This document shows positions 1 to 54,900 of a stretch of 64,000 bases of DNA, one piece after another. The stretch comes from a virus. Taxonomy: Duplodnaviria; Caudoviricetes. The stretch covers positions 1 through 64,000 of IMG/VR virus record IMGVR_UViG_3300029305_002733; one strand, 5' to 3'. The translations under genes were made by a program, and so were the position numbers. How positions within the stretch are numbered: position 1 is the stretch's first letter; each line of letters starts with the position of its first letter. Under the pieces are notes generated by a model. The model did no database searches. It saw nothing but the letters and a program-made list of their open reading frames with translations, and was not told the origin of the DNA.

Positions 1-107
1 TCAAAATGAAGGACATTCTTCATCTTCTTGCCACATTTCCTACAAAGCATATCTTTCGTTCCTTTCCAAATAATGGTTTTAATTATGTCTAGTTACCTTG
101 TGAGTTA

Positions 108-136
108 AATATAACATAAGAAAAATAAAATGTCAA
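108..136 (-). promoter_or_regulatory. sigmaA-type promoter TTGACA-17-TATATT, flanked by 17-bp operator-like motifs at 78-94 and 147-163
   Basis: Reverse complement of tgtcaa at 131-136 and aatata at 108-113, 17-bp spacing. Confidence 0.7.
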
Positions 137-147
137 TACCTGTTTAT

Positions 148-342
148 TTAATTTTGCGTAGTTAAATAATCTTCTTCTAATGCCTGTCTAGTAGACTCTT
201 CCATTTTCTGTTGTTGAATAGTCCGATTACTTAAGCACCAACTACAAGTACCATGGTTCCGGCAGGAACAATCAAATGCCTTAGAACCGATATAAGGTTT
301 TCTTTTTTCTTTACCATGCTCAATAGCTTTATCAAGACTCAT
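148..342 (-). CDS. small Cys/His-rich phage hypothetical protein
   Basis: 64-aa ORF with GAGG SD; CxCxxHGxCxxC pattern. Confidence 0.75.
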   Translation of the reverse strand: MSLDKAIEHGKEKRKPYIGSKAFDCSCRNHGTCSWCLSNRTIQQQKMEESTRQALEEDYLTTQN

Positions 343-11579: not shown

Positions 11580-13262
11580 TTAGACTGTTTTAAAAATGTT
11601 AACCTCTTCCATTAACTCGTTTGCAGTATCGGCAACTCTATTTGCTTTATCAAGAATCTGTTCAATAGTTGCTGCCTGCTGTTCTATATTGGCCATTGTT
11701 TCCTGTGTACTTGCACTATTCTCTTCGCTAATAGCTGATAAATTAGAAATAATATCTACAATCTCAGCAATATTCTTATTAATGATTTCAATCATTGAGT
11801 TAATACCATTCACTCTATCAACTGTATTATTAATATTTTCACCAAGAGAATTAAATACATCATAAGTTTCATTGATCTTCTGACTCTGATAATCTACATT
11901 GGTTGTAGTATTCTTCATACTATCTTCAATCAGATTATAATTCTTATTTAAATCCTTAAGAATCTTTTCAATTGCCTCGGAAGAATTTGCAGACTGAGTA
12001 GCAAGTTCTCCGATACTAGATGCTACAACACTGAATCCTCTACCCGCTTCACCGGCACGAGCTGCTTCAATATTTGCATTCAGAGATAATAACTTAGTCT
12101 GATCAGCAATTTCCTTAATTACATTTACTGCATCTTGAATCTTTTCTACGCTCTCACTGGTAATGCCAACCTGAGTATTCATGTTCTGAACATCTCTTAC
12201 AATCTCATTATTAGCTTTCTTTAAACCATCAAGCACGGTCATTGCTGTATTTTTTACTGCATTCATGTCCCTAGCAACACCATCGAGTTCATTGGCATTA
12301 ATACCAATCTTATTTAATTCGTCTGCTACACTACCGACCATCAGAGTTGCGTTACTTGTTTCTTCTGCCTGTGAATTTGCACCCTGAGCAACATCTGTAA
12401 TTGCTTTGGCAATTTCATTAGAAGCATTATTTGTAAGTTCCGCAGATGATTTTAAATTTTCAGCAATATCATTAAGTGTATCAACGGTTCCTTTCGTAGT
12501 GTTCATCATTATATTTAACTGTGAAACAAGATTAGCACTAACATTGTTGATGGTTTCAATTTCGTCTTTTGGATTTTCATATATCTCATAAGTATTAGAC
12601 AAATCATTCATAGACAAATCATTTACTACCTTATTGGTCTTTACTAATTTTAATCTAATTTTTCGAACGCGGAAAAGCACAAAAGCACTAATAACAAGCA
12701 CTACTCCAACTCCAACTTTAAGCATAGTCACCATTGTATTTATAATCTCACCATCTACATTGGAAGCAGGCTGTCCTGCAAAGATAGCTCCTACACATTG
12801 ACCGTCCTTCATTACCGGCTCATACCATGCGTAATACTTTATACCGTTTACGTTTGCATCCTTAGCAGAATAAATTTCGCCACTCTGTAATGCTTCATAT
12901 ATGCCATCGTCTATTTTTGTTCCAATAGCATTTGGTATTGTAGAAAACTTTCTAACCAAAGTACGTTCTTCTTCATCATAAGCAAATATCGTTATATCTG
13001 ATTCATTTACTTCTTTAAAATCTTCAAGCAAATCGGTTACTACTGCCATTTTTGTGTTATCTGCCGACATTAAAGCTGTTTCTTGAATAATGGCATATGT
13101 AGAAAGTCTTAAATATTCCAGCATGTCATTTTTCATAGTCTTACCAATCATAAGGGCACACACACCAACTGAAATAAAGGTTGTTATCATTGCTGGGGCA
13201 GTAGCATATGCTATGATTGCTGCGCCCAATGTATGAAGCCACTGTTTAATTTTTTTAATCAT
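11580..13262 (-). CDS. methyl-accepting chemotaxis protein with a Cache-type extracellular sensor
   Basis: Two TM segments around a Cache-like domain ([21 protein letters not shown]); hairpin-tip signature [27 protein letters not shown]. Confidence 0.93.
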
Positions 13263-13271
13263 AAATCCTCC

Positions 13272-14171
13272 TTATCCAAACACATTGTTTTTAATTTCAT
13301 CTAGTTTAAATGGGATGTAATATGAAAACCCATTATTTTCGTTACAAGTATATTCAAAATTAGAATAACTCTGTAATTTATCTGGTGTAGCTTGTGCTCT
13401 ATAACAAGTGTCTTTAACCGGACATTCATTACTAGTGCACATAGTCACGTCTGGCATTTTTAATCCTCCTCCTTTGTTGATTCTTCCTGTAATCTTCTTC
13501 TAAATTCTCTTTCGGCCATTGACATACCTTGACCTAATGCCCCAATATCTAAGATACATTTAACGTTATATTCCTTTAAGAGTTCAACAATAATTTGTTC
13601 ATAGATTTCATTTGCTCTCTTCCATGTTATAGTTGGATATTGAAGTGCCAAATAAAATAATCGTCTTGGGACATAATACTGAGCATTCATCATATGATTA
13701 TAAAATTCTTCATTAGTAATACAAGACACCTCCAATCAAAAGTTGTTTTTATTGTATAGTTTTAATTATGCGTAGTTCCCTTTATTTTTAAAGGCAAGGA
13801 AAAATTTCCCTGCCTTGGATACAAAGGCTGAACTGTTTCTTTTGTTCACACCTATACAATAACACTACTTTTTAATTTTGTCAAGTATCTAATTGCATAT
13901 TTTTTAATTATGCGTAGTTAAGAACATTAAGAATGATTGGATAGCCCTCTCCGTAATAGAAACTATCATTATATGATACGAAATCCACTGCTTCTTCATA
14001 GTCCATACCTTCCTTCTCAATAAGCCATTCAATCATTTTGTCATAATCGTACACTGCTCTGTTGTCATTAGTAACACCGATGAAGGCATCATCATATGAT
14101 GGATTCTCATAGATGATAACATCTTCATAGCCATAATCTTCAATCATCTCTCTGGCTTTCATGTGAATCAA
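13272..14171 (-). CDS. three small hypothetical ORFs (13272-13457 Cys-rich, 13460-~13700, 13908-~14162)
   Basis: ORF track; SDs for the first two; DDAFIGVT..AVYDYDKMI pattern typical of phage small proteins. Confidence 0.65.
13856..13884 (-). promoter_or_regulatory. sigmaA promoter TTGACA-17-TATTGT with extended -10 TG, between operator motifs 13903 and 13761
   Basis: tgtcaa 13879-13884, acaata 13856-13861. Confidence 0.7.
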
Positions 14172-14185
14172 AATCTCCTTTTATT

Positions 14186-28677: not shown

Positions 28678-28721
28678 AATTTTTTATAAGAAGTCATGCA
28701 CTGCGCATATGCACGACTTAA

Positions 28722-28790
28722 TTGGCATGCATGAGACTCGAACTCACATTTCCGATATCATAGTTACTCCATTCACTACTACCATGCCAA
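28722..28790 (-). ncRNA. tRNA-like element with acceptor stem, D and T arms but no proper anticodon arm
   Basis: TTGGCATG/CATGCCAA terminal stem, GTGAG-TTCGAGT-CTCAT T arm, TGG in the D loop; only ~14 nt where ~22 nt (anticodon plus variable region) are expected. Confidence 0.6.
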
Positions 28791-28813
28791 GAGAACTCAA
28801 TCAAAATTCTCTT

Positions 28814-30499
28814 TTATTTTCTAAATGTAAACTGATTTGTCAGTTCACTTAAAGATACAGATTGTGCTGATAACTCTTCACTTACTGCGGAAGTTTCCTC
28901 TGCTGTAGCAGAATTGCTCTCTACTACTGCTGAAATCTGTTCAACATTTGTTTCAATTTCTTTAATCATATCTGTCTGCGTCATAAATGCTTTCGCCATA
29001 TTACTAGCAGTTACTTCAAAATGTTCCATGTCTGCAATGGTCTGTTCCATAATCTTAGTTGTATTCTCTACAATCTTATTACCATTCTGAATTTCCTGAA
29101 GCGACTTATTGATTAAGTCTTTTGTCTTTACTGCTGACTTTGCACTATCTGCGGCAAGCTTACCAATCTGATCAGCTACAACAGCAAATCCACGTCCAGC
29201 TTCACCAGCTCTTGCTGCTTCAATCGAAGCGTTTAAGGATAAGAGGTTCGTCTGAGAAGCAATGTCTTCAATGTCTGCGATAATATCTTCAATTTCTTTA
29301 GAAGTATCAGTAATTCGTGTCATCGCATTAGTTAACTCAGATGCTTCAACCTTACCTTGTTCTGCCGCAAGTACCGCTGTCTTTACATTATTAACTGTAT
29401 CTGTTGCTCTGTTTGTACTTTCTACAGAAATATTTGTAATATTTTCAATCGTTGTAGATAAGCCCTTAATGGCATTTGCCTGCTCAGTAGCACCTTCAGC
29501 AATTTCTTGTGCTCCATGTGCCAACTGCTCTGCACCGGTAGATACCTGATGCACTACCCGATTAATATTATTTAATGTCTCACTCTGATTTTCTGCCGTT
29601 ACTTTTACATCATTGATAATCTTCTTAAATGCACCAACATATAATGCTTCATTCTTAGAATTTACATTAAAGTTGCCATTCTTCAATTCATCAAGAACAT
29701 AAGATAAATCAACAATAATTGCCTTTAACATATCACATGTTCTTCGGAAAGAATTTGCTAAATCTCCAAGTTCGTCAACAGCTTCGTATTTAATCTCAAC
29801 ATCTAAGTTGCCTAATGTTAATTGTTCTGCAACACCTTTAATCTCTTCTACTGGATTTTTTACCATTTCAATTAAGATGTTCACAGCTCTAACAGTAATA
29901 ATGATACAGGAAATCAACATGGCAAATAAGAATAACGTACTTGCAATAGTTGTATTACGTGCCATTCTATATTCGTTTGCCGCATCTGCTTCTGCTTCAT
30001 GGCCAATATCATCTAATAATGTTTGTAATTCATTAACAACGACTTCATAATCACCTACATATAACATAATTCCGCCAACTTTATCACCGGCATCTACATA
30101 ATTAATAATTTGTTGATGCATAGTTAAGAAGCTTTCCCATAATTTATCAAGCTCTTTAAGCTGACTTTTGTTATGATATTTTTCATTTAACTTCACAATA
30201 TTCTCTTCGATGTTTTCAATTGCTGTCGCAACCATTCTCATATGTTCTTCAATCTGAACTGGGTCACTTACAGATACCGCCCATAACATATGCTTACCTG
30301 CGTACTGTAAGTCTTTTCTCATTTCCAACTGAATAACCGAACTGGTATACGATTCGTTGTAGAATGTTTTAAATTGTTTTGCTGAAATTGTAGAACCTAA
30401 AACATTCATAAAAAGAGCAAAAGTAAATACGAAAATAATAATGTTCATTACTGTTTTAATTTTCTTACCAACCGTTAGCTTTTGTAAATGCTTTTTCAT
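28814..30499 (-). CDS. methyl-accepting chemotaxis protein with 4-helix-bundle sensor and HAMP domain
   Basis: Two TMs, HAMP ([24 protein letters not shown]), [27 protein letters not shown]. Confidence 0.93.
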
Positions 30500-30517
30500 T
30501 TGTATTTTTCCTTTCTT

Positions 30518-30720
30518 TAGTATGAAATTATTTGATACCGTTACTGAAAACTTATAAAAAATTATAAACTTTTATGTTTCATTCCTACTTCAATGTGTAT
30601 GCTTTCGACGATATAAATATCAGTCTACTCACAAGTTCTTGTACACTCCATAGGCGTAAATTCCTGGCTAACGCATCAGTACATATCTGCATTAACTTGA
30701 AAGTGTTATGCTACAGATTT
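30518..30720 (-). ncRNA. predicted TnpB omegaRNA/right end (scaffold ending ...AGTTTTCAGTAACGG at 30538; putative guide TATCAAATAATTTCATACTA)
   Basis: Directly 3' of tnpB; ends in AACGG, resembling IS607-type right ends as recalled; TTATAA repeats near the end. Confidence 0.6.
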
Positions 30721-31887
30721 TTCTAAAAACATTTCTCCATATCTTTTCAGATTTAAACTTGCTTGATAATCTCTGTCAATTACGTTGCCACATTCACACT
30801 TGTAAATGCGGTCACTAAGTTTTAAATCCTTTTTGATATTTCCACAACAACTACACAATTTAGAACTTGGAAAGAATCTATCTGCAATAATTACAGGAAT
30901 ATTATTCCATGCAGATTTATATTCAATTTGTCTCCTAAATTCTCCAAAACACTGTTGTTGTACTGCCTTAGATAAATGTTTATTCTTCATCATCCCTTTG
31001 ACATTCAAATCTTCTAACACTATATAAGATGGTTTGGTTTTCACTATCTCAGTAGTTGTTTGATGTAAATGATTCTGACGAATATTCGTTAGTCTGTGAT
31101 TTAATTTTAAAAGTTCTTTTTCTCTTTTTATAATGTTACTTGTTTTGCAGTAACCTCCTCCTTTCTTATTCTTTTCATATCTTCTTGATATGGAACGCTG
31201 TAACCTGCGTTTTCTTTTTTCTAATTTCTTTACTTTTTGAGTTTTATTGATATTTTTATAAGTTATTTTGTCTGAGCATATTGCTAAATCTTTAATTCCT
31301 AAATCAATTCCAATACCATCATTAGATGGGCGAGAAGCAGAGTCTTCATACTCAATACCAACTGTAATCCACCAATTAATTCCATCATACTTAATACGAG
31401 GATTCATGTATTTTGCATTTGCACTTGGTATACGACCATGTTCAGCAAGTTTAATCCAATTCAATTTTTGCTTATTCTTTTTCTTAGAAGTAGCAAATCC
31501 TTCAACTTTTACATGTGTATCTGTAAATTGTATTTTTACATTGTCTTGATAGAATTTTGGTACTGAATGTTTTCTACTTTTGAATCGTGGAAACTTTGTA
31601 TATCCTTTGAAGAAATCTCTATATGCTTCGCAAGCGTCTTTTATAGCTTGTTTTGTTACATTATTTGAAATGTTATTTAACCATGCATAGCCAGATGTTT
31701 TCTTTAACTGCGTAAACTCTTTTCTTAAATCTCCATCAGATATAAATTTTCCACCATTTTTGTAATTTTCTTGTTCTCTTGCTAATGCCCAGTTATAAGC
31801 AAATCTTGCAGTATTAGCATATTGAAATAGTTTAGTTTTTTGTTTGTTATTTGGTAATAGCATTACTCTTATTGTTTTTATCATCAT
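30706..31887 (-). mobile_element. tnpB: solo TnpB RNA-guided endonuclease (IS200/IS605/IS607 superfamily), no tnpA
   Basis: HTH N-terminus, GIDLG (RuvC I), LEDL (RuvC II), CSCCG..CECG Zn finger, DRD (RuvC III); start placed at ATG 31887 after GAGGTG SD. Confidence 0.92.
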
Positions 31888-31917
31888 CTTCACCACCTCT
31901 CATCCTTTTATGAGAAA

Positions 31918-31988
31918 TCACCCAGGGCGAAGTCGAATCGCCATCTCCTCCCGTGTGGAGGTATTCTACCAATTATTACTACCGGGCA
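31918..31988 (-). tRNA. degenerate tRNA-Val(CAC)-like element with shortened anticodon loop
   Basis: GGCGA-TTCGACT-TCGCC T arm, TGGTAGA D loop, CCTCC/GGAGG stem with a 5-nt loop ACACG; wobble-rich acceptor stem. Confidence 0.55.
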
Positions 31989-32029
31989 ACCTTTGCTAAA
32001 AATGAAATACCTTGTTCAGTTAACAATTT

Positions 32030-32368
32030 CTTATTTGATGGTTTAACGTTTCACCAACAACGGACGCTCACCCTACTGCTCACAGGGAACAGTTTTATCA
32101 TACCACTGACAAGATAATATTGAAAAAATACACGCGTGACCTATGTATTCGCGACTACATAGGATTATACTTCCCACGTTTTACGTCCCGTTAAAGTATT
32201 AAACGCCAGACGTTTCTTCCTTTCTCCCTTTCGGCAAAAGAAGATAATGCTCCAAACGCTTAGTCGTTACCTCCGTTGTTCACCTCCATCCACGGTAGGG
32301 GTATGTTCTTTTTGAACTTGCCTCAAAAGTCAGACTATACATTAGTCAATTTTGGCTTCATCAGCCAA
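32030..32368 (-). ncRNA. candidate ~340-nt structured non-coding RNA between tRNA genes
   Basis: GC-richer, no convincing ORF; hairpins TTGGC/GCCAA, GACTA/TAGTC, CC-GAAA-GG, CCTATGTA/TACATAGG; long-range AACAACGGA/TCCGTTGTT. Confidence 0.5.
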
Positions 32369-32453
32369 CGACTGTTGAGCGATTCGAACGCTCGGAGCTG
32401 TTAAGCTCACTGGTTTTCAAGACCAGCTCCTTAAACCACTCGGACAAACAGCC
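32369..32453 (-). tRNA. tRNA-Ser(UGA)
   Basis: GGCTGTT/AACAGTC acceptor, CTGGT-CTTGAAA-ACCAG anticodon arm, long variable arm, TTCGAAT T loop. Confidence 0.95.
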
Positions 32454-32456
32454 AGA

Positions 32457-32529
32457 TGCGAGATATTGGAGTTGAACCAATCGCAACAGCTTTATAAGAA
32501 CTGCCCCATAACCGCTTGGGTAATCTCGC
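32457..32529 (-). tRNA. tRNA-Ile(UAU)
   Basis: GCGAGAT/ATCTCGC acceptor, CAGTT-CTTATAA-AGCTG anticodon arm, ATTGG-TTCAACT-CCAAT T arm. Confidence 0.9.
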
Positions 32530-32717
32530 TTATTTTGCCGGAATATACCGTCCGGCACGGTTGAAAGAGGAGGAGAATCAAACTTCGATTTTATTTAATT
32601 ATGTCTAGTTTGATTGTTACGTATTTGTGCGTTTTTGTTTAGGTGACGCACCCCACCGCCTTACAAAAGAGGTTCAAAAATGAAACAACTATCAACCAAT
32701 GTGTCTTTCGACACAAG

Positions 32718-32790
32718 CTGGGCATACTGGATTTGAACCAGTGAAATGCAGCAGTCAAAGTGCTGTGCCTTACCGCTTGGCGAATGCCCA
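32718..32790 (-). tRNA. tRNA-Gln(UUG)
   Basis: TGGGCAT/ATGCCCA acceptor, CAGCA-CTTTGAC-TGCTG anticodon arm, TTCAAAT T loop. Confidence 0.95.
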
Positions 32791-32985: not shown

Positions 32986-33114
32986 ATGATAACACATTCA
33001 AACTCATTTGTCAATACTTATTTTAAATATTTTAATTTTATCTAGTTTGAAGTGTTTTTAAAGTGTTCCTCTTTGGAACAACTTAATGATATCATATTAA
33101 AAAGGATTTGTCAA
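32986..33114 (-). promoter_or_regulatory. tandem sigmaA promoters (TTGACA-17-TATCAT twice) for the tRNA locus, interleaved with operator motifs
   Basis: tgtcaa 33009-33014 with atgata 32986-32991; tgtcaa 33109-33114 with atgata 33086-33091; motifs at 32933, 33031, 33125. Confidence 0.8.
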
Positions 33115-51900: not shown

Positions 51901-54900
51901 GAAATGTGACCGCAAATTCATATTCTTTCATAATTACCTCCTAGTCAACATCTACAATATAAAATTCTGTTGTATCTTCATCAGCCCAAGTAATAAGAGC
52001 AATATCTTCTTCACACCAACAGTTTTCTTCATCCAACGGATCGTCTATTTCTCCATTTAAATTATCAGCAATAATATCGTTATAAAAATCTTCCCACGCT
52101 TTTCTTAAAGCATCTTCAGATGTTTCATTTTCTTTCACTCTAATAACTTCAGGCATTGCTTCACCCATTTCCATATCATGATACTTTTTGTAAATCAAAA
52201 TTACTTTCATAATCCTCTACCTCCTAATCAAATGTGAGTTTGATTTAGTTGCTATCTAATACTCAACTCATCTTCGAAAACATCATTTTCAGTTCCATCA
52301 TTAAATCTGCACTTGTACATATATCCAACATCGTCAATATCACATTCCAAGTTTGTTAACGGTCTGATGATTTCAACTTCTGTTCCGTTGTACTGTAATA
52401 AATCTGTATCTGTTGTAGTAAATATAAATTTCATTCCGTTTTCTAACATAATAATTACCTGCCTTTCATCAAATACGAGTTTGATTAACACCAACTAAAC
52501 GGTTTCTGTTGTCCATTTGCTACATAATCTTCATTGCTTGTCTTACAAATATGTAACCAATCATTAACCATTGCTTCGGCGGATTCATATTCATAATGTC
52601 TAAGTTCTCCATCTGCTGTTTCTCTTTCAATATTCTTACCGAAGAACTTGTAATACTTCTGATGCCAGTCTTGATAATAACCATTGTTAATTACAATGTT
52701 ACCTTTCTTGTTCCATGCAAATCCATAACCATAAAAGCTACAGATTTCTGCCATCTGTTCTTCTGTTTCGCTCCACTGCTTACCGGTTTCTCTTTCATAA
52801 TCTTCTCTTACATCTAAATCAATAATGCTATCCATATTCATTCTCCTTTCATGGACAAAATTCCGATTTGATTTACTTTACTACCTTTACATTCTTCCCT
52901 AATACCTTACAAATCTCTTCTACGGTCATTTCAACTGTATCATTGTTTTGATTATCCCTATCATAAATCAGCTCTGCAAATCTATCAGTCCATGAAAACT
53001 CTTCATTCTCTAACATTGATGCTAAATTTGTCATATGCTTTTGTGTCCAAATTTTCATAACATCGTACTTGGAGCAATACTTATTTATTGCACTATCTGT
53101 CTGTAACGTATGTTCGTCTTGATAGTCAGTTGAATAAGTTAAATTCTCATTATAACTACTCAAACACATGTGCCCCAAATAACCAATTAAATAACCATCA
53201 ACAACAAGGTATTTAACGCCACTTCTTAACTCCACAATCATTCCACTTTTTAAAATACTTTTCATACTAATTCCTCCTAATCAAATCCCAATTTGACTGC
53301 CACTTAAATGTGACAGTCAACAGCAGTTACAACAACATCTTCTTCTAAACTGCTAATGAAGTTTTTAAATTCTATTTCCCAACTATCTTTATCTTTTTCA
53401 TTGGACACGCAAGCCCACCATCCCATTTCGCCACGCTCATGCCATCTTCCATCAGGTGAAATAAATGCAAATGGTACAGTTTCTGTCCAATCAATTTCTG
53501 AAGCATAATCTTCATTTGTGGGTTCTCCAGAAAGTGTCTTAAGATAACCATTCCATCTTCCACCAATTGAATACCAATCCCATTTTGAATTTGGGTTATA
53601 TGTAGAATAAAGATTACCTTCTTCATCCTTATCATCGTCTTCATACCAACTAGCTACATCTTCATAACACTCATCATCTGTCCAATTCATCTTCTTTGGG
53701 AATTCTTCACGAAGATAGTGCAAATGTTTTTCATTAGAACAATCTTCTGCATACTTTTCCGGGTTCTCTAAATACCTTGCATAAGTTCCATTCTTGTATT
53801 CTTCGATTTCCTTTCTGGTTTTTGCAATTGCCTGTTCTCTCGTGTACTTAATATATGGTGCAACTACAATATTCTCATCATAAGGTGCGAGTAATTCCTC
53901 AACTGTTCTTCCTTCTTCTTTTGTAAATACTAAAGTAATAAAATGTGACATAATTCATTCTCCTTTCATCTAATCAAATCTTGCTTTGGTTAACACCAAA
54001 TCCCTAATCTGTACATTAAATCATACAGACCATGGTAAAAATCTGTTTCATGATATTCACTATCTTCATCACAAACGCTTTCTAAAACATCATCTGCTTT
54101 AGTTAATGCGTTAACTAATTCTCTTTTCTGTTCCTCAGATAATCTGTTTACCAATTCTTCCATATCAACGCCTCCTTATAGAATCATTATTCTATTCATC
54201 CTCATTTGGCCAGTATCCAAGTAAATTTGCATTCAGTTCAATCATCTCAATCTGCTCATAATTCTCTTCATAATCAAGATTAAATTTATCCATAAGCCGA
54301 TTCCAATTGTAACCAGTAACATCACTCTTATAAATTTCAATACTCTGTGTTGACGCATTTGGAACATGTAAGTAATTGATAATGTATGGTAAGAAATCAT
54401 CAATCTGATTTGTTTCATTACAAATCTTAACTGCTGTTCTTATCAATGCCTGAACAAATGCATCAGACATGAATGCACTACCAGTAACTTCCTTAATCTC
54501 CTCTTCAGTAATCTCTTTTACATTTTCCCAACCCTTATCCATGATGTATGTAACCACTGTCATTGCTACATGTTCATCAAAGTACTTCCGAATAATATCT
54601 CTTACGTTGTCTCCTGCTAATTTCATATCTTTTTCCTCCTCTTAGCTCACTCTTTTCTGTGGCTCAATTCCATGTTCCCAACAAATCCTATCTATCTCTT
54701 CATTTGTGAGAATTTTTAGTACCTTAATGGCTCCGGCTATTATCCAGTCTTCATACATAAGTGGACTGGTTTTATATCTGTAATAACCATTCACTGGAAT
54801 TTCTTTTAAGTAACTCTTTACCGGAATTACCTTGCCATCCTTATTAGTTCCATTCTTATTAGCGACAGGTTGATAATCAACCTCATCACTATATTCAACC

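Follow-up and report, generated by a model that had tools for sequence, protein, structure and literature searches.

The stretch of DNA analysed here (the window) comprises the first 64 kb (64,000 nucleotides) of the IMG/VR virus record IMGVR_UViG_3300029305_002733, which measures 83.6 kb, is classed as linear and is estimated to be ~55% complete. All long open reading frames (ORFs) of the window lie on the minus strand. One of them, MCP2, encodes a chemoreceptor, or methyl-accepting chemotaxis protein (MCP), and is directly preceded by a tnpB gene of the IS607 type; another chemoreceptor gene, MCP1, is found elsewhere in the window (Table 1). On its 3' side MCP2 is followed by genes for an Rnl2-type RNA ligase, SSB-like, DnaB-like and primase-like proteins, RecJ, a DnaE-type polymerase and RecD2. 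On its 5' side there are three tRNA genes, a gene for a kinase/HD protein, NadR-like and NAD-ligase genes and a tyrosine integrase gene. The phage is a large gut phage of the DnaE type that bears an integrase and probably has a Lachnospiraceae host.

The domain content of MCP2 is that of a bacterial transmembrane receptor. With Pfam, the signalling domain MCPsignal (PF00015) was found at residues 372-538 with 121.3 bits against a cut-off of 34.6, and the four-helix bundle (4HB) sensor family 4HB_MCP_1 (PF12729), at residues 7-180, scored 26.5 bits, slightly below its cut-off of 27. An AlphaFold2 model computed from an input of 18 homologues had a mean predicted local distance difference test score (pLDDT) of 78. 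It places four helices, at pLDDT ~90, between two transmembrane (TM) segments, such that TM1 runs into helix 1, helices 2 and 3 follow, and helix 4 continues through TM2 into the HAMP domain. The model also contains a long antiparallel hairpin turning at residue 432, and the residues of the hairpin tip (around ARAGE...GRGF), together with many others, are invariant across the 18 homologues. When the whole model was submitted to Foldseek, the top matches were Tsr in the Escherichia coli core signalling unit and YvaQ/McpB of Bacillus subtilis, the first fold match being PDB entry 8C5V. Local matches to the sensor were the 4HB ligand-binding domains of MCP2201, Adeh_2942, Vc1313 and Tar, with target TM-scores of ~0.5-0.85 and weak E-values.

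For assignment to the 36H class, the criterion was 18 heptads in each arm and equal length in the alignment with Tsr. In the family profile, residues 301-561 of MCP2 align with residues 259-519 of Tsr, both spans being 261 residues long, and the C-terminal arm after the tip has 128 residues; by this alignment MCP2 is a 36H-class receptor. Compared with the E. coli receptors Tsr and Tar (PDB 6S1K, 8C5V, 3ZX6, 1QU7), MCP2 likewise has a 4HB sensor, TM2, HAMP and a signalling hairpin, at ~19-31% identity, but it ends in FTFRK, without the flexible C-terminal tail and the NWETF-type pentapeptide, and ~45 additional conserved residues (269-313), modelled at low pLDDT, separate its HAMP from the signalling bundle. 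Within this segment (window ~29561-29695), where pLDDT falls below 50, G275, N276, Y287, V288, G289 and F291 are invariant across the homologues, and it may be a degenerate second HAMP. Candidate methylation sites (EE/EQ-x-x-A-S/T-like) were seen as loose matches at residues 339, 520, 534 and 541, with the strict 10-residue consensus unmatched.

Twelve contigs from several samples (JGI and ENA) encode one and the same MCP2 protein, and the order tnpB, MCP2, RNA ligase was seen in every one of them long enough to show it. Misassembly or a host island was considered and ruled out, since the 12 independent contigs repeat a common gene order with phage neighbours. The G+C content of MCP2 (34.6%) and its codon usage fit the phage (34% for the window). 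The initial annotation had described MCP2 as a phage-borne 4HB-HAMP chemoreceptor, and the full domain set, the 12 contigs and the phage neighbours all bear this out. The gene is host-derived, phage-embedded, reproducible and selected, as expected of a phage accessory ("moron" or auxiliary) gene.

The closest homologues of MCP2 are 85%, 79% and 65% identical; next come proteins of 58-53%, and then hundreds of ~44-40%, which include named Lachnospiraceae proteins from metagenome-assembled genomes. In the 85% relative (L004; L-numbers are labels of the related loci or contigs that were compared), the MCP gene stands within a tRNA array, in the order Gln, Ile, Lys, MCP, Ser, His, and a gene for an ATP-dependent DNA ligase adjoins the array. 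The copies in L179 (65%) and L006 (55%) have small ORFs around them, together with HPr and FolD genes like those of a clearly related phage, and the neighbours of three copies of 55-56% are ordinary bacterial genes. Uncultured Lachnospiraceae MCPs of 55-58% identity (P0005-P0008) have a length and architecture like those of MCP2 and belong to the sister clade described below, but they are chromosomal, near glycoside hydrolase, MerR, flotillin, ABC transporter and PilZ genes, and their GC is 39-42% versus 34.6% for MCP2.

In a maximum-likelihood tree, the phage-context copies of MCP2 form a clade with a Shimodaira-Hasegawa-like approximate likelihood-ratio test (SH-aLRT) value of 99, and its sister is a bacterial-context clade (SH-aLRT 100). 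The GC content of the phage-context MCP genes is 34-35% and that of the bacterial-context genes 39-42%. The ratio of nonsynonymous to synonymous substitution rates (dN/dS) is 0.08 between MCP2 and the L004 copy, at dS ~1, and 0.08-0.2 across the phage clade. These values bear on whether MCP2 could be a passenger that was captured not long ago, or contaminating host DNA, and of no use to the phage. MCP-like matches in viral contig collections are often at contig ends, where the host flanks of prophages are common; however, MCP2 is internal to the 83.6-kb record, with phage genes on both sides in 12 assemblies, it matches the phage in GC and codon use, it belongs to a phage clade under the constraint just given, and its stop codon is embedded in a gene-end motif of the phage. 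We regard a passenger origin as very improbable.

Other searches for relatives returned little. The GTDB pattern scan for a host of MCP2 gave distant matches alone among the matches listed. No close relatives were found in IMG/VR with a single-protein query, and an alignment query of the same database gave MCP2 matches of at most 35% identity, many of them at contig ends. A megablast search of the 6-kb neighbourhood against GenBank phages had tnpB as its sole match. With regard to position, an MCP gene follows FolD (tetrahydrofolate dehydrogenase/cyclohydrolase) both in L182:9178-11689, where the receptor is Cache-type, and in L006:3150-7018, where it is 4HB-type, which suggests that the FolD-adjacent position is a slot for the exchange of receptor genes in these phages.

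MCP1 differs from MCP2 in its sensor and in its length class. Over the cytoplasmic part the two proteins are 30% identical, with many gaps, and the C-terminal arm of MCP1 is 155 residues long, its best match being the 44H receptor TM1143. Homologues of MCP1 (61% and 48% identical) occur in related phages directly 3' of DnaE replication genes and are followed by RecD2 or nuclease genes, so that MCP1 and MCP2 each have phage-borne relatives of their own. Because of the low identity, the different sensors and the separate relatives, the two would be separate acquisitions, each long resident in the phage group and belonging to different length classes. This agrees with the initial annotation, which had described MCP2 as a second MCP with an unrelated sensor and proposed two independent captures. 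Two chemoreceptor acquisitions kept under selection in phages is a fair reading of these comparisons. The differing length classes of MCP1 and MCP2 suggest different host arrays or pathways.

Table 1. Features of the MCP2 locus and of the rest of the window; domain positions are residues of the MCP2 protein.
Feature	Position	Strand	Remarks
MCP2, 561-aa chemoreceptor ORF	28814..30499	-	Pfam, AlphaFold2, Foldseek
MCP2 TM1	residues ~13-40		hydrophobic segment
MCP2 4HB sensor	residues ~41-181		Pfam and model
MCP2 TM2	residues ~182-213		hydrophobic segment
MCP2 HAMP	residues 213-254		Pfam 34.2 bits, cut-off 25
MCP2 conserved linker	residues 269-313		poorly modelled
MCP2 36H-class signalling hairpin	tip G432/E433		class assigned by alignment
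MCP2 leader	30500..30537	-	AAAGG ribosome-binding region ~10 nt before ATG
7-6-7 dyad, AATAAAA-GAGAAT-TTTGATT (coding strand)	28799..28818	.	left arm contains the MCP2 TAA
IS607-type right end / omegaRNA scaffold	30538..30705	-	downstream of tnpB
18-bp terminal repeat	30551-30568		within right end
RAGATH-18 RNA (RF03064)	30582-30654	-	Rfam 74.5 bits, gathering score 44.9
Solo tnpB, 393 aa, intact	30706..31887	-	directly upstream of MCP2
Non-coding stretch, 42% G+C	31888..32367	-	between tRNA array and tnpB
tRNA-Gln, tRNA-Ile, tRNA-Ser array	32368..32790	-	upstream of the tnpB-MCP2 unit
Two near-consensus promoters (TTGACA-17-TATCAT, TG extension)	32986..33114	-	could drive tRNA array, tnpB and MCP2
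MCP1, 560-aa chemoreceptor	11580..13262	-	sCache_3_3 sensor, 44H-like signalling domain

The tnpB gene appears to encode a complete nuclease. Its product has the Pfam domains HTH_OrfB_IS605, OrfB_IS605 and Cas12f1-like_TNB and scores 305 bits with the NCBIfam model guided_TnpB; the RuvC residues, read from the motifs, are present in IDLG, LEDLN and IDRD, and there is a CxxC...CxC zinc finger. IS607 elements terminate in GG, and their TnpB uses RAGATH-18 as guide RNA (PMC13565253). The right end in the window terminates in ...CAGTAACGG. For comparison, 80 related TnpB loci were retained from IMG/VR; in more than 45 of them the terminal ...TATAAGTTTTCAGTAACGG is kept, the element ending in ...AACGG, and the sequence beyond it is unrelated between sites. 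This places the right end in the window at 30538 and the start of the guide at 30537, which is 38 nt before the MCP2 ATG and is also the coordinate at which the initial annotation had ended its MCP2 feature. The predicted guide runs from 30537 downwards for ~16-20 nt (TATCAAATAATTTCAT...), and its 16-mer occurs once in the window. That the region upstream of MCP2 supplies the TnpB guide, as had been proposed at the outset, is thus supported by the RAGATH-18 match and by the right-end boundary. The RNA fold of the tnpB 3' region was no more stable than shuffles (z = -0.42), and the RNA call rests on the Rfam covariance match.

The window copy resembles other IS607 elements in its TnpB domains, its RAGATH-18 RNA, its GG end and the use of the 3' flank as guide, and it sits in a phage genome. 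Sister copies, for example in L008, L058 and L022, carry a serine-recombinase tnpA with MerR-type helix-turn-helix and Resolvase domains as well as a left-end repeat, and insert after AGGAGG, whereas no Resolvase domain of a resolvase-type tnpA was found in the entire record and no left-end repeat in the window. Lacking both, the window tnpB is a solo derivative rather than a complete IS607 element and is incapable of transposing by itself. On the left, it joins the phage DNA close behind a degenerate tRNA-His-like sequence, at a junction that is not sharply defined and reads either AAAGG or GGTGG. In another solo copy, at L009:2983-3006, the 16-nt right-end terminus AAGTTTTCAGTAACGG is also present directly upstream of the start of tnpB; this copy looks as if it had inserted beside an older right-end remnant.

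The behaviour of the family can be judged from a 2,067-bp IS607-type sister element with tnpA, tnpB and omegaRNA, whose TnpB is 78% identical to that of the window. Among the related IMG/VR phage contigs L266-L286, 15 are occupied by this element and 6 are empty; L022 and L268 are occupied examples. The absence is precise, since the empty site reads AAGGAGG and then immediately continues with guide-matching sequence, which indicates that the element inserted between a Shine-Dalgarno-like target-adjacent motif (TAM) and the start of a gene. AGGAG and GAGGG are the TAMs of most IS607 TnpBs (PMC13565253). Given this polymorphism, the IS607 TnpB family is mobile in these phages, with a TAM that looks like a ribosome-binding site.

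The initial annotation had gone further and proposed that TnpB could help spread the linked MCP allele by cutting TnpB-free relatives during co-infection. On this account TnpB would be a homing drive for the MCP2 allele, cutting the tnpB-free leader next to its TAM, after which repair would co-convert tnpB together with MCP2. Because the sister element has both occupied and empty sites in related phages, such homing with co-conversion is mechanistically reasonable, and the window TnpB has apparently intact catalytic motifs, a canonical omegaRNA and a defined guide to go with the precise 15 to 6 polymorphism of its sister. Homing into co-infecting phages is listed as a possible mode in PMC13565253, along with the IS607 TAMs, and the same source cites T4 SegB, in a tRNA region, as favouring the inheritance of neighbouring markers in mixed infection. 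In addition, tnpB is present in 12 of the 12 contigs that carry the window MCP2 allele, but simple descent predicts this fixation equally. A search of viral and JGI metagenome contigs for an empty allele, with the exact 23-nt guide and leader, gave 0 matches (a weak negative), and a similar search for the empty site of a solo sister copy, with the L010/L054 guide, returned two occupied sites and chance matches alone. The nearest tnpB-free relative, L004, has diverged at the guide position, with ~7 of 19 target positions matching by eye in the alignment. The window left junction (AAAGG or GGTGG) is not the AGGAGG of the sister empty site, and the element is without tnpA and left end.

The relatives of this TnpB likewise show no preference for MCP genes. 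TnpBs of 76-89% identity occur at many unrelated sites in other large gut phages, and in five large TnpB-bearing phage records that were checked, three of them rated complete, no MCP domain was found. The proposed drive for MCP2 is therefore not borne out, there being neither a link to MCP genes nor a matching empty allele in the collections searched; the comparison of loci with and without tnpB that had been suggested gave a tnpB-free relative that does not match the guide and TnpB relatives at unrelated sites. We consider a homing drive distinctly unlikely. Slightly less probable again is a combined scheme in which a lineage of large phages of gut Clostridia swaps receptors of two length classes that reprogram host swimming, and TnpB, guided by the leader, drives the allele from one co-infecting phage to another by co-conversion. 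The adjacency of TnpB and MCP2 looks incidental, an ordinary selfish insertion.

The 20-bp site at the end of MCP2 belongs to a motif that is spread across the genome. The MCP2 stop codon (28814-28816) falls within the arm at 28812-28818, as placed in the initial annotation. The motif is real but is not a feature of the MCP gene as such. The window contains 13 copies of the form AATMAAA-N6-TTTKATT, where shuffled sequences predict 0.03, and for a looser form there are 41 strand-matches, the expected number being 0.22. On the coding strand of the 83.6-kb record there are 22 sites of the looser form, 14 of which overlap the stop of an ORF (50 aa or longer) or lie immediately next to it (random 20-mers, ~5%), and 11 sites have an ORF start no more than 25 nt downstream. 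The dyad also occurs in L004, L182 and L265, which are related phage loci, and was absent from every bacterial-context locus checked. It is a gene-end motif of the phage at large, not an MCP-specific one. An MCP-specific cassette bounded by such sites was considered and rejected, as the next upstream site is inside the tRNA array (32576) and many unrelated gene ends are marked. Other examples in the window are at 14166-14185, 32576-32595 and 52226-52245. The dyad is also found between two tRNA genes, and it may therefore act beyond protein genes, at the level of RNA processing or termination.

Several features of the surrounding non-coding DNA can be added. The scan that yielded the two promoters upstream of the tRNA array found no terminator-like site between tnpB and MCP2, so MCP2 is probably co-transcribed with tnpB and its omegaRNA by read-through. 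Between the tRNA array and tnpB, the G+C content of 31897-32367 is 42% against 34% for the window, and within 31991-32367 (minus strand) there are an extended -10-like sequence, TGGTATGAT, and several hairpins, with no Rfam family match. Directly upstream of tnpB lies a degenerate tRNA-like sequence (~31918-31990, minus strand). It received no ARAGORN or Rfam call and is homologous to the tRNA-His (anticodon ATG) of L004, including ~16 nt of 3' flank. An anticodon-less tRNA-like element between MCP2 and the RNA ligase (28691-28790), pointed out in the initial annotation, gave no ARAGORN or Rfam call and no convincing alignment to the MCP-flanking tRNAs of L004.

Taken together, we somewhat favour the interpretation that MCP2 is a functional bacterial-type chemoreceptor resident in a large gut phage, with the TnpB adjacency accidental. 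An ancestor of the phage group would have taken MCP2 from a Lachnospiraceae-like host, the gene being inherited since then under purifying selection. Upon expression, whether from phage or prophage, MCP2 would be inserted in the host membrane, where the conserved 36H hairpin tip would join the CheA/CheW arrays of the host. No CheW or CheR domains are encoded in the 83.6-kb record, and MCP2 must therefore rely on host partners. By adding to or overriding the sensory input it would change the swimming of the lysogen or infected cell, and MCP1, being 44H-like, would address a different array or pathway. A solo, nuclease-intact IS607 remnant would have inserted 38 nt ahead of the MCP2 start codon, its omegaRNA necessarily using the MCP2 leader as guide, so that the tnpB-MCP2 adjacency would be an insertion accident in a tRNA-region hot spot and not a dedicated drive for the MCP. 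A role of MCP2 in host chemotaxis or the manipulation of motility is, at this point, read from the sequence.

Several points weigh against this interpretation. The tree of MCP2 came from a quick maximum-likelihood search, and L006 and L179 are placed in a phage context by their gene content and GC, these two loci having solely the MCP in common with the window record. Across 400 sampled Lachnospiraceae genomes the best full-length match to MCP2 was 43% identical, from which it appears that the donor lineage is not among them, and the bacterial-context relatives of 55-56% come from metagenome contigs. The host itself is assigned solely through the taxonomy of homologues. Furthermore, as the record is ~55% complete, che genes could sit in the absent portion.

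A different use of the receptor would be to jam the array during the lytic phase, in that over-produced MCP2 would lock the output of CheA and stop or bias swimming. This could keep the infected cell near susceptible neighbours, save energy or block superinfecting phages that use flagella. MCP2 does lie among replication and tRNA genes and outside any obvious lysogeny module, strong predicted promoters stand upstream of the tRNA-tnpB-MCP2 block, and receptors of two length classes could address two arrays. However, a pure jammer needs neither a sensor as conserved as in the bacterial homologues nor purifying selection on the whole gene, and MCP2 has both; the integrase, moreover, indicates that the phage is probably temperate. 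Jamming is unlikely, if the least so of the alternatives raised here.

Phage proteins of this kind have been catalogued. MCP2 matches phrog_8572 of the PHROG collection over nearly its full length (E 1.9e-55), as does MCP1 at 5e-37, and PHROG lists the function of this family as unknown. Like the other phage MCP-like proteins of phrog_8572, MCP2 has a complete MCP signalling domain with no che partners in the phage. It differs from the known ones in that the host is a gut member of the Clostridia (probably Lachnospiraceae), that one phage carries two receptors, which differ in sensor type and in length class, and that MCP2 lies in a tRNA-array region with an IS607 TnpB in its leader. The SegB gene of phage T4 likewise encodes a nuclease and lies in a tRNA region, but SegB is a free-standing, protein-guided GIY-YIG homing endonuclease for which marker exclusion has been demonstrated, whereas the nuclease of the window is RNA-guided and known from sequence. 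MCP2 thus adds to the known phage chemoreceptors one that is maintained by selection in a host group new for them, and the IS607 TnpB in its leader looks incidental.

Two aspects of this locus extend beyond the single phage. The polymorphism of IS607 TnpB elements among related gut phages offers a natural system for RNA-guided homing between viruses, and in one resolved case the insertion separates a Shine-Dalgarno-like AGGAGG from the beginning of a gene. As for the receptors, phage-carried chemoreceptors are annotated yet, within the literature searched, unstudied, our search having found no study of the function of a phage-encoded chemoreceptor. The present case has advantages for such a study: two length classes are found in one phage, each is kept in phage relatives, the bacterial sister clade can be identified, and strong purifying selection acts. 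Phages could alter where motile gut Clostridia go, provided that the receptors function in the host.

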